A DNA stretch of 64,000 nucleotides from the NCBI GenBank assembly GCA_951406725.2, contig OX597814.1:37572001-37636000 (forward strand), in the 5' to 3' direction. Positions within the stretch are counted from its first letter, which is position 1. Each line of letters starts with the position of its first letter. Under the pieces are notes generated by a model. The model was not told the origin of the DNA. It ran no database searches and saw only the letters and a list, made by a program, of their open reading frames with translations. Made by a program: the position numbers and the translations under genes. The stretch comes from Octopus vulgaris (taxonomy: Eukaryota). Of this stretch, positions 21,489 to 38,200 are shown one piece after another.

Positions 21489-22872
21489 AATAATAATAAT
21501 AATAATAATAATAATAATAATAATAATAATAATAATAATAATAATAATAATAATAATAATAATAATAATAATAATAATAATAATAATAATAATAATAATA
21601 ATAATAATAATAATAATAATAATAATAATAATAATAATAATAATAATAATAATAATAATAATAATAATAATAATAATAATAATAATAATAATAATAATAA
21701 TAATAATAATAATAATAATAATAATAATAATAATAATAATAATAATAATAATAATAATAATCATAATAATAATAATCATAATAATAATAATAATAATAAT
21801 AATAATAATAATAATAATAATAATAATAATAATAATAATAATAATAATAATAATAATAATAATAATAATAATAATAATAATAATAATAATAATAATAATA
21901 ATAATAATAATAATAATAATAATAATGATGATGATGATGATGATGATGATGATGATGATGATGAAGATGATGATGATGATGATGATGATGATGATGATGA
22001 TGATGATGATGATGATGATGATGATGATGATGATGATGATGATGATGATGATGATGATGATGATGATGATGATGATGATGATGATGATGATGATGATGAT
22101 GATGATGATGATGATGATGATGATGATGATGATGATGATGATGATGATGATGATGATGATGATGATGATGATGATGATGATGATGATGATGATGATGATG
22201 ATGATGATGATGATGATGATGATGATGATGATGATGATGATGATGATGATGATGATGATGATGATGATGATGATGATGATGATGATGATGATGATAATAA
22301 TAATAATAATAATAATAATAATAATAATAATAATAATAATAATAATAATAATAATAATAATAATAATAATAATAATAATAATAATAATAATAATAATAAT
22401 AATAATAATAATAATAATAATAATAATAATAATAATAATAATAATAATAATAATAATAATAATAATAATAATAATAATAATAATAATAATAATAATAATA
22501 ATAATAATAATAATAATAATAATAATAATAATAATAATAATAATAATAATAATAATAATAATAATAATAATAATAATAATAATAATAATAATAATAATAA
22601 TAATAATAATAATAATAATAATAATAATAATAATAATAATAATAATAATAATAATAATAATAATAATAATAATAATAATAATAATAATAATAATAATAAT
22701 AATAATAATAATAATAATAATAATAATAATAATAATAATAATAATAATAATAATAATAATAATAATAATAATAATAATAATAATAATAATAATAATAATA
22801 ATAATAATAATAATAATAATAATAATAATAATAATAATAATAATAATAATAATAATAATAATAATAATAATA
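21489..22872 (+). repeat. Compound tract (TAA)n-(TGA)n-(TAA)n, ~1.4 kb; TGA block at about 21925-22293
   Basis: Seen directly in the sequence. Confidence 0.97.
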
Positions 22873-35264: not shown

Positions 35265-38200
35265 ATGAATAATAATAATGCAGCTAGAGAAGATAATACA
35301 GAGGAAATGATTATAGACCAGCCCAGGGCGGATAAAAACGAAGAGAGGATTGAAAGAGTTAGTATAAGTGATAGGCAAAGTGAAATACGCCCTGAACCAA
35401 TCATAAACACTAAGTCAGATGAGCATCAAATAGATAAAGAAAGTCACACAAATATTGACCCAACAGAACTACATGAGCTAAAAAATCAAATCATGATTGA
35501 ATGGCTGAAAATTAAAGAAACCAGCATGGATGAGCGTGATACACTTCCTAAAATCCGCAACTCTAACCAAAACATGAAAATAATTGGTAAAATCCGGCTT
35601 GCACTTAAGGATATAATTTCAGTTAATGATGTTGATATCACAAACCTCAACCACCTATACTATGCATCCGCGAAAATCTCAACGATCCTATGTGGTGTAA
35701 AGATTAGAAAACGGCAACAGTCCCACAAAAAGCCTTCTTGGCAAGAGCGTCTGCAACAACAAATTAAAATATTTAGATCTGACATTGAATATTTGAAAAA
35801 CCTTAAGGCTCACAAGATTACCAAACCTACAAAAACCCAAAAATTACTGAAAAAATACAATATGAAAACTATACTTGATATTGATGCCACCATAGAAACC
35901 ATCAAACAAAAGGTATCTGCCAAAGCTGCCCGCATAGCGAGGTATGAAAAGCGTGTTAGATTTTTCAAGGACAACAACATGTTCAAAAATAACACCAAGA
36001 ATTTTTACCGGAAGATAGGAAAAACAGCGTTTACTGCAGGGTCTGTACCATCAAAAGAAGAAGTGCAGAGATTTTGGAATAAAATCTGGGCAGAAGAAAA
36101 AACACACAACGAAAAGGCCCCCTGGATTGACAGAATATCTACAGAACTGGACCCCTTAGAAGAGCAAAAGTGGGAGGGTGTCAAGGTAGAAGATATAAGA
36201 TCTGCTCTCAGGAGGTCAAGCAAATGGAAGTCTCCAGGAAAGGATAAAATTCCTAACTTCTGGCTGAATGCCTTCCCAGAGAGCCATGAACTGCTAACAG
36301 AACTGTACAATGATGTTTTGCAACACCCTAGTAGGATGCCTCCTTGGCTAGTTAATGGGTTAACATTCCTGCTTCCAAAAAGTGAAGAAACAAATGAACC
36401 AAAAAAGTATAGACCCATAACTTGCTTAACAACTATGTACAAAACACTAACATCTGTCCTGACGGAATATACCTATAGTTTTTTAACAGACAGCAGCATA
36501 TTCCCTAATGAACAGAAAGGATGTAAACGTGGATCCTACGGCTGTAAAGACCAACTACTCATCAATAAGATGATCTTAGAAGATTGTCACAAACGACACA
36601 AAAACTTATCAATAGCCTGGATAGACTATAAAAAGGCTTTTGATAGCCTACCACATAGCTGGATTAGGAAATGCCTTGAAATGTATAAGATAGCACCAAC
36701 TCTGCGAAACTTCTTGACTGTAAGTATGAGATCATGGAGAACCACACTAACTCTGAACAGTGACAGTGAATCCCTAAATGCTGGTGATGTAAAAATTTCG
36801 TGTGGCATTTTCCAGGGTGACTCACTGTCACCACTCCTCTTTTGTTTATCCTTAATACCTCTCTCAAAGCTGCTCAATGATGCGCAGTACGGGTATAAAA
36901 TGTTTGATAAAAATATAAATCATCTCGTTTACATGGATGATTTAAAGCTTTTTGCAAAAAATGATCAACAACTCAAGGGCTTACTAGCGATAGTCAAACA
37001 ATTCAGTGACGACATCAGAATGCAATTCGGCCTCGATAAATGTGCAAAGGCTACCTTTATCAAAGGAAAAATGACAGAAACATCTAACGTTAACCTTGAC
37101 CAACAGAATGTCATAAAAGAACTAGACCCAGCGGAGAGCTACAAGTACCTAGGGATAATTGAAGGGAACGGAATAAGGCATTCAGAGATGAAGGAAAGGA
37201 TCAGGAGAGAATGCTATCGAAGAGTGAGAGCAATACTCAAGACAGAGATGAATGCAAGAAACAGGATCGAAGCAATCAATGCATTAGCTATACCAGTCGT
37301 GACTTACAGTTTCAATATTGTTAACTGGTCAATTACTGAAATATGTCAGCTCGACAGAAAAATAAGGAAACTGTTGACAATGCATAGAATGCACCACCCT
37401 AAGGCAGATACAGAACGACTCTATCTGCCAAGAAAAAGGGAGGCCGTGGTCTTTTGCAACTGGCAATAACAATGAAGATTGCTACAATTGGCCTAGACAC
37501 CTACCTGAAAAACTCTGAGGACTGGATGCTAAAACTTGTCTCAAAACATGAAAACAAGAAAGCATCATACTCAGTCACAAAACAGGCAAAGGAATATCTA
37601 AGTGAATTCCGAATACAACCAATTTCGGAGATAGATATACAAGAAACAAGCACAGAAAAAGCTAGGCGCATGAAAACCCGTGCCAAAACTGCGGCCTTAG
37701 ATATTCTGAATAATAAATGGCAAGAAAAACCTCTCTATGGCAAATACCCAAAGAGAGCGAATAATGCAGATATCGACAAAGCCCTGACCCATCAATGGCT
37801 AATGGCCTCTGGCTTAAAATCTGAAACAGAGGGGTTTATCATAGCAGCTCAAGATCAATGCCTACCAACAAGAAACTACCAGGCCAACATATTAAAGATC
37901 AGAAGCAGTCCAACGTGTCGTGTATGCAAGCAACAAAATGAAACCATTGACCATGTGGTCTCCAAGTGCAGTCTTCTAGCGCCTACAGAGTATCTCAACA
38001 GGCACGATAGAGCTGCACAATATATTCACTGGGTAATCTGTAAAAACCTGGATTTGCCCCATGAAAAAAACTGGTGGGAACACAAACCACCCCCAGTGCT
38101 TGAAAATGACCACATCTCACTCCTCTGGAACTTCACCATTCAAACTGACAGGAAGATAGATGCAAATAGGCCAGACATCATATTGAAAAACTTCAAACAA

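Follow-up and report, generated by a model that had tools for sequence, protein, structure and literature searches.

Organization of the array

How did three nearly identical retrotransposon copies within a single microsatellite array come to share one 5' end? The window, by which we mean the whole stretch of 64,000 nucleotides analysed here, consists of AT-rich, repeat-dense eukaryotic DNA and includes a composite (AAT)n array at 19739-44843, in which six inserts lie on the same strand in the order S, S, A, A, A, B. The A inserts (A1, A2 and A3, together family A) are 3.44-kb R4/Dong-like LINE copies arranged head-to-tail, are 99.6–99.8% identical, and have (AAT)n on both flanks in the same orientation. 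The region from the 5' array to the family B copy is laid out as follows.

21489..22874, plus strand: array 5' of A1; (AAT)n with a (GAT)n island at 21925-22295, and 579 bp of pure (AAT)n abutting A1
22875..26320, plus strand: copy A1; 5'-truncated R4/Dong-like LINE with RT, CCHC knuckle, putative REL-type C-terminus and 3' UTR; stop at 26086
26117..26170 (and equivalents in A2 and A3), plus strand: 3' UTR tract, A25-CC-T16
26321..28576, plus strand: spacer A1-A2; perfect (AAT)752, 2256 bp
28577..32014, plus strand: copy A2; junction ATG-AAA-TAA, conserved N (KNY) and L (TEL), open frame at 30745
32015..35266, plus strand: spacer A2-A3; (AAT)n of ~3250 bp with two phase shifts (32150, 32265)
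35267..38704, plus strand: copy A3; junction partly overwritten by AAT, TAA-like sequence in place of the final ~11 nt at the 3' end
38705..41720, plus strand: array 3' of A3; (AAT)n of ~3018 bp with one phase shift (41165)
41721..44724, plus strand: decayed Dong-like copy of family B within this array; near full length, 5' end ~100 codons further in than that of family A

A1 and A2 have a complete 3' end. The arrays lying 3' of the family A copies are 2.3–3.3 kb long and contain zero substitutions and three phase shifts overall; every other pure AAT/ATT run in the window is shorter than 600 bp. The (GAT)n island (~370 bp), which is absent 5' of A2 and A3, is a variant of the repeat, changed by one base, that underwent an expansion of its own.

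Relationship to R4/Dong elements

The RT domain PF00078 is matched in A3 (E 7e-28), and YMDD, CCHC and RHD are present in all three copies. Alignment shows family A to be collinear with 1200-aa relatives up to their final residue, and a profile built from the relatives matches solved R2 proteins (E 1e-39). An RPDI motif is visible in family A, with no match to the strict PD..D..K pattern and none to an endonuclease in Pfam. The combination of RT, CCHC, collinearity and flanking (TAA)n marks family A, as judged from its sequence, as an R4/Dong-like LINE; no named Dong reference is among the matches.

Family A resembles the Dong/R4 clade, represented by Dong of B. mori and the Dong-R4 elements of molluscs, in its single ORF with RT (PF00078), CCHC and a putative REL-type C-terminus, and in its one-strand insertion into (TAA)n with (TAA)n at the 3' end, as those elements are described in PMC7998251. 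It differs in having neither the Myb/SANT-like domain nor the 5' UTR, in being frameshifted, and in forming a head-to-tail triplet with one truncation. In the 3' UTR of family A a run of A24-25 is followed by T15-16, a potential A/U hairpin; an older, 83%-identical relative at 2028-2595 has no tract of this kind. Families A and B share ~63% DNA identity in the RT.

The 5' junction and the start of the ORF

A preliminary description of this DNA held that all three copies break at the same point and that the ORF begins right at the repeat. The ATG lies at 22873 in A1, 28575 in A2 and 35265 in A3, and the first 21-mer common to the copies occurs three times in the window against 0.00 expected (100 shuffles). 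No element sequence was found between the array and the first G in A1, A2 or A3, and this lone G is kept in all three, although the next 8–11 letters vary: between the common G and the common TGCAGC stand AACGAAGC in A1, AAATAAGC in A2 and AATAATAATAA in A3. The shared breakpoint thus holds for the positions and for the G; the letters that follow, up to TGCAGC, differ from copy to copy.

The second half of the description fits A1 and A3, whose junctions translate as MNEAAARED and MNNNNAARED, and fails for A2, which reads M-K-stop. The ORF is in any case unbroken in no copy, with -1 frameshifts at 24553 and 25042 in A1, 30078 in A2 and 37438 in A3; these may be sequence errors. The junction ATG is assembled from AT of the array and the first G of the element, and when the cut was placed at random, 167 of 5139 trials (3.2%) had an in-frame ATG; the rate is ~3% whether or not microhomology is assumed. 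Because the junction represents one event, this chance is counted once and not three times, and the start of the ORF at the repeat is probably incidental.

The missing N-terminal region and 5' UTR

The copies had also been described as seeming to lack the N-terminal region of full-length elements, and this is borne out. Eighty of the 120 listed relatives align from within the first 100 residues of A1; 53 of these extend at least 100 aa further upstream, 12 extend 50–99 aa and 15 less. The long relatives have a conserved N-terminal block in common, for which we built a domain HMM of 78 positions from 41 of them. This HMM matches 96 of the 116 relatives of at least 1100 aa (55 of the 75 outside the training set), and a six-frame scan of the window did not find the domain (best E 0.44). 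The RxxLPK motif is preceded by 89 residues in A1 and lies at a median residue of 224.5 in the relatives, in which the linker from the end of the domain to RxxLPK has a median of 78 residues (10–90%: 60–110). Taken together, these figures place the cut near the border of domain and linker, with ~135 codons missing.

A Myb/SANT-like N-terminal domain has been described for R4/Dong elements, together with their (TAA)n targets (PMC7998251), and it is likely that this is the missing domain. Compared by features with Rap1 Myb clusters, the N-terminal block scored 0.86, which is a lead only.

No 5' UTR is present in the family A copies, in which coding sequence adjoins the array. Dong of Bombyx is reported to cleave itself at a 5' HDV-like ribozyme (PMC3774820). 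At the 5' end of family A a search for a ribozyme-like structure gave no Rfam match and a fold z-score of +0.43, and a scan with an HDV-like descriptor, which was run without a positive control, found no match near the junctions. For Octopus vulgaris, 1129 young Dong-R4 insertions totalling 4,732,901 bp are reported (PMC13282606); dividing these figures gives a mean of ~4.19 kb per insertion, as against 3.44 kb for family A.

Searches for a longer member of the same family were negative among the relatives available. The N-terminal 300 residues found one match only, at 55%; with the whole piece as query, the best long relative was 65% identical over most of its length; and none of 553 candidates among shorter proteins qualified. 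A 187-aa relative (P0259) is 86% identical and covers the RT only. The 20-nt junction was not found in 4.1 million characters of the PMC9115989 supplements, which is uninformative as these represent part of the files. The study describes, for O. bimaculoides, a Dong consensus with a full ORF that shows no sign of having been active recently (PMC9115989); its transcriptome files may contain a full-length copy.

We also considered that the missing 5' part had been split off upstream by expansion of the TAA repeat. This was rejected, as the window contains no match to the domain and the 536/556-bp element has no blastx match to the relatives.

A single insertion, probably in at least two versions

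Other Dong-like pieces in the window begin elsewhere, as located by their matches to a full-length relative.

2033: Dong-like piece, first match at ~residue 1064
41769: Dong-like piece (family B), first match at ~residue 261
46587, minus strand: Dong-like piece, first match at ~residue 796
45356-45960, minus strand: Dong-like piece, matching the C-terminal part

For three independent cuts to fall within ±12 nt the probability is 3.5e-5 if cuts are uniform over 4.2 kb and 6e-4 over 1 kb, and three independent truncations were rejected. The common G, the 99.6–99.8% identity and the different starts of the other Dong-like pieces all point to a single origin of A1, A2 and A3 as far as sequence comparison can tell, and the truncation that they have in common indicates one insertion event, not three.

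Over ~3235 columns, A1 and A2 differ by seven substitutions and three gap columns, A1 and A3 by six and one, and A2 and A3 by five and two. Four of the seven body substitutions are private to A1, three to A2 and none to A3. The copy-specific differences that had been listed beforehand are present in this alignment, KKY/KNY at 24012/29714/36407 and TEM/TEL at 24852/30554/37248. A1 and A3 have K and M at these sites; the N of A2 is found in 189 of 261 relatives and its L in 240 of 244 (M in 0). The private Q, K and N of A1 are not among the commonest residues of the relatives, and one A1 site is unpolarised. Of the 9594 single-base changes that are possible, only 12 would bring back a residue conserved in at least 70% of relatives, and the probability that two of three random errors in A2 would both do so is ~5e-6. 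Hence either family A includes two or more sequence versions with one and the same 5' end, or A2 was polished using reads of other members of the family. Plain stacking of a single noisy sequence is disfavored, because A1 and A3 agree on a non-conserved residue at two non-synonymous sites and A2 has the conserved one at both.

The body indels are all -1 and lie in homopolymers or an AG run. A1 and A3 are both shifted by -1 near 25042 and 37438, via different deletions within 4 nt. The T tract in the 3' UTR is longer and interrupted in A1 and A3 and is a plain T15 in A2. Two of the seven substitutions are transitions, a spectrum compatible with either mutation or error (P 0.32 and 0.57), and the transition/transversion ratio was dropped as a test on this account.

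Probable amplification by unequal exchange

We think it fairly probable that a single insertion, truncated and dead, gave rise to all three copies through unequal exchange between the TAA arrays on either side of it. Target-primed reverse transcription into (TAA)n would have halted ~3.44 kb from the 3' end, just past the Myb/SANT-like domain, and this early halt would have dropped ~135 codons as well as the 5' UTR. The same repeat flanks the unit on both sides, and the downstream array could have mispaired with the upstream array, duplicating the element and a spacer. The polarised differences suggest that one daughter lineage then acquired the K, the M, a synonymous change and the longer T tract, and that a later exchange or conversion produced the order X-Y-X; a second event is needed because the most related copies, A1 and A3, are not adjacent. 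The differences in junction letters and the -1 deletions in homopolymers would mostly be consensus-calling noise beside long arrays, with the A1 junction presumably nearest to the original.

A local origin is favored by the consecutive order of the A copies, and no further copy of the junction occurs elsewhere in the window. Each spacer (2256 and ~3250 bp) is shorter than the two flanking tracts added together (579 + 3018 bp), which is a weak consistency check. Not everything fits unequal exchange: the junction changes are all toward TAA, the indels are -1 and have the look of consensus noise, and A1 has four private substitutions against none in A3, at odds with a clock. The clustering of copy types in the array is weak evidence, as the three A copies would be contiguous in 12 of 60 orders. 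Among the three mechanisms put forward in the preliminary description, local amplification nevertheless fits best; stacking is disfavored, and no positive evidence for re-mobilisation was obtained.

A possible artefact of assembly or polishing

A less probable but quite possible course is that one or two real copies, or two haplotypes, were multiplied in assembly, the repeat having served to join reads that ended in (AAT)n. In that case A1 and A3 would represent a single real copy, and A2 either the second haplotype or that same copy, overwritten with reads of other members of the family. A1 and A3 indeed differ in only 6 substitution and 1 gap columns of 3234, A2 has no unique anchor on either side, and its alleles are the conserved residues that polishing with family reads would yield. 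The -1 deletions in homopolymers, with two different deletions at one AG-rich spot, point the same way, as do the three element ends, of six, that are overwritten with TAA-like sequence and the multi-kb arrays free of substitutions. A randomly noisy A2 is nonetheless excluded (P ~5e-6), and noisy consensus letters alone do not imply a false copy number. Moreover, because 579 bp of pure repeat precede A1 and the (GAT)n island is absent 5' of A2 and A3, stacking needs short overlaps within pure microsatellite.

Re-mobilisation and a natural 5' end as unlikely alternatives

We regard it as unlikely that a read-through transcript of the truncated copy, with its intact 3' UTR used in trans by a full-length Dong protein, gave rise to the others. 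Under this mechanism a (UAA)n leader would anneal to the target, and the same 5' junction would appear in every daughter. There is precedent in R2, in which upstream target sequence in the RNA is reported to give uniform 5' junctions and to propagate junction variants (PMC3774820). The complete 3' ends of A1 and A2, the several same-strand insertions in the array, and the position of the window's longest and purest arrays next to family A copies are all compatible with re-mobilisation. Against this, the copies are all adjacent, the junction occurs in none of the window's other TAA arrays, the junction sequences are not uniform, and the three ribozyme searches at the 5' end (Rfam, fold z-score, descriptor) were negative. 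The same question for R2 was, according to PMC4370867, settled in favor of recombination. We find it quite unlikely, too, that a Dong without promoter, ribozyme or Myb domain constitutes a non-autonomous lineage to which the microsatellite lends its 5' leader, annealing arm and start codon, and which builds its own TAA arrays by carrying kilobases of (UAA)n with each insertion.

A natural 5' end at this junction, in a family that lost its N-terminal domain and is translated from an ATG completed by the target repeat, is very unlikely: the in-frame ATG in two of three copies (3% by chance), the cut near the domain border, the 20 of 116 long relatives that the domain HMM does not match, and the failure to find a longer member of the exact family among the relatives searched would suit it, but the domain is broadly conserved (96/116; PMC7998251), the 5' ribozyme reported for Bombyx Dong (PMC3774820) has no counterpart seen here, and young O. 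vulgaris Dong-R4 insertions, from the PMC13282606 figures, average ~4.19 kb and not 3.44 kb.

Comparison with other site-specific elements

Amplification of a single truncated insertion by recombination has its closest parallel in R2. In Drosophila simulans, 51 of 386 5' truncations of R2 are reported in two to four copies (PMC3542110), and in Bacillus rossius all truncated R2 variants are reported as multi-copy, which was attributed to unequal recombination (PMC4370867). In both reports, as in family A, a common 5' truncation is the mark of one insertion later copied within a tandem target. The target of family A differs in being a trinucleotide microsatellite, and its unit in comprising the element and a variable spacer, where the R2 unit is a whole rDNA unit; the copy number of family A is that of the assembled sequence.

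Tandem R1 elements in Drosophila rDNA likewise form head-to-tail copies at one target, and in D. melanogaster the identical junctions of tandem-like R1s have been read as amplification of one event (PMC2718515). R1 copies differ from family A in being separated by a 14-bp target duplication, and most R1 arrays are thought to arise from repeated insertion. R1 has an APE endonuclease. Uniform 5' junctions formed by annealing of cDNA to the target, as described for R2 with an upstream-cleaving ribozyme (PMC3774820), correspond to the re-mobilisation mechanism. That system needs a full-length RNA processed by the ribozyme, and no ribozyme was detected in family A.

In the open-access literature searched, we found no report of tandem, identically truncated Dong copies in TAA arrays. 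Amplification of a common 5' truncation by recombination is already documented for R2, so that its probable occurrence here at a different target is not surprising, and the significance is modest. If the triplet is real, it adds microsatellites to rDNA as targets at which dead site-specific retrotransposons are amplified by recombination, and "young, near-full-length" Dong elements can be overcounted with no retrotransposition taking place. If it is an artefact, LINEs flanked by multi-kb (AAT)n are spots at which assemblies duplicate sequence and corrupt junctions. Either way, the near-identity of such copies is no evidence of activity.

Other sequences in the window

The two S inserts in the same TAA array are non-coding elements of ~550 bp (19997-20540 and 20933-21488), which are ~96% identical with 20 substitutions and one 10-nt indel, and both begin ATGCCC after AAT. 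They gave no blastx match to Dong relatives and no match in Rfam, and may represent either a non-autonomous element that targets TAA or an older duplicate of local origin. Dong-like fragments lie on the minus strand at 45356-45960 and 46255-46587. The former terminates in a TAA array, carries a (TAG)n/(TAA) tract on its 5' side, and has its 3' end in common with family B (89% over 97 nt).

A decayed LINE-like region at 16700-19738, with RT-like motifs recognized by eye, ends directly at the start of the TAA mega-array; the single ORF scanned within it (18634-19329) has no Pfam match. A scan of the window for tRNA genes found none. Tandem repeats of ~184 bp are present at 4710-5140 and 8111-8597, which may be octopus SINE-like repeats. 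A 388-bp tandem duplication at 59771-60546 shows five substitutions and no indel.
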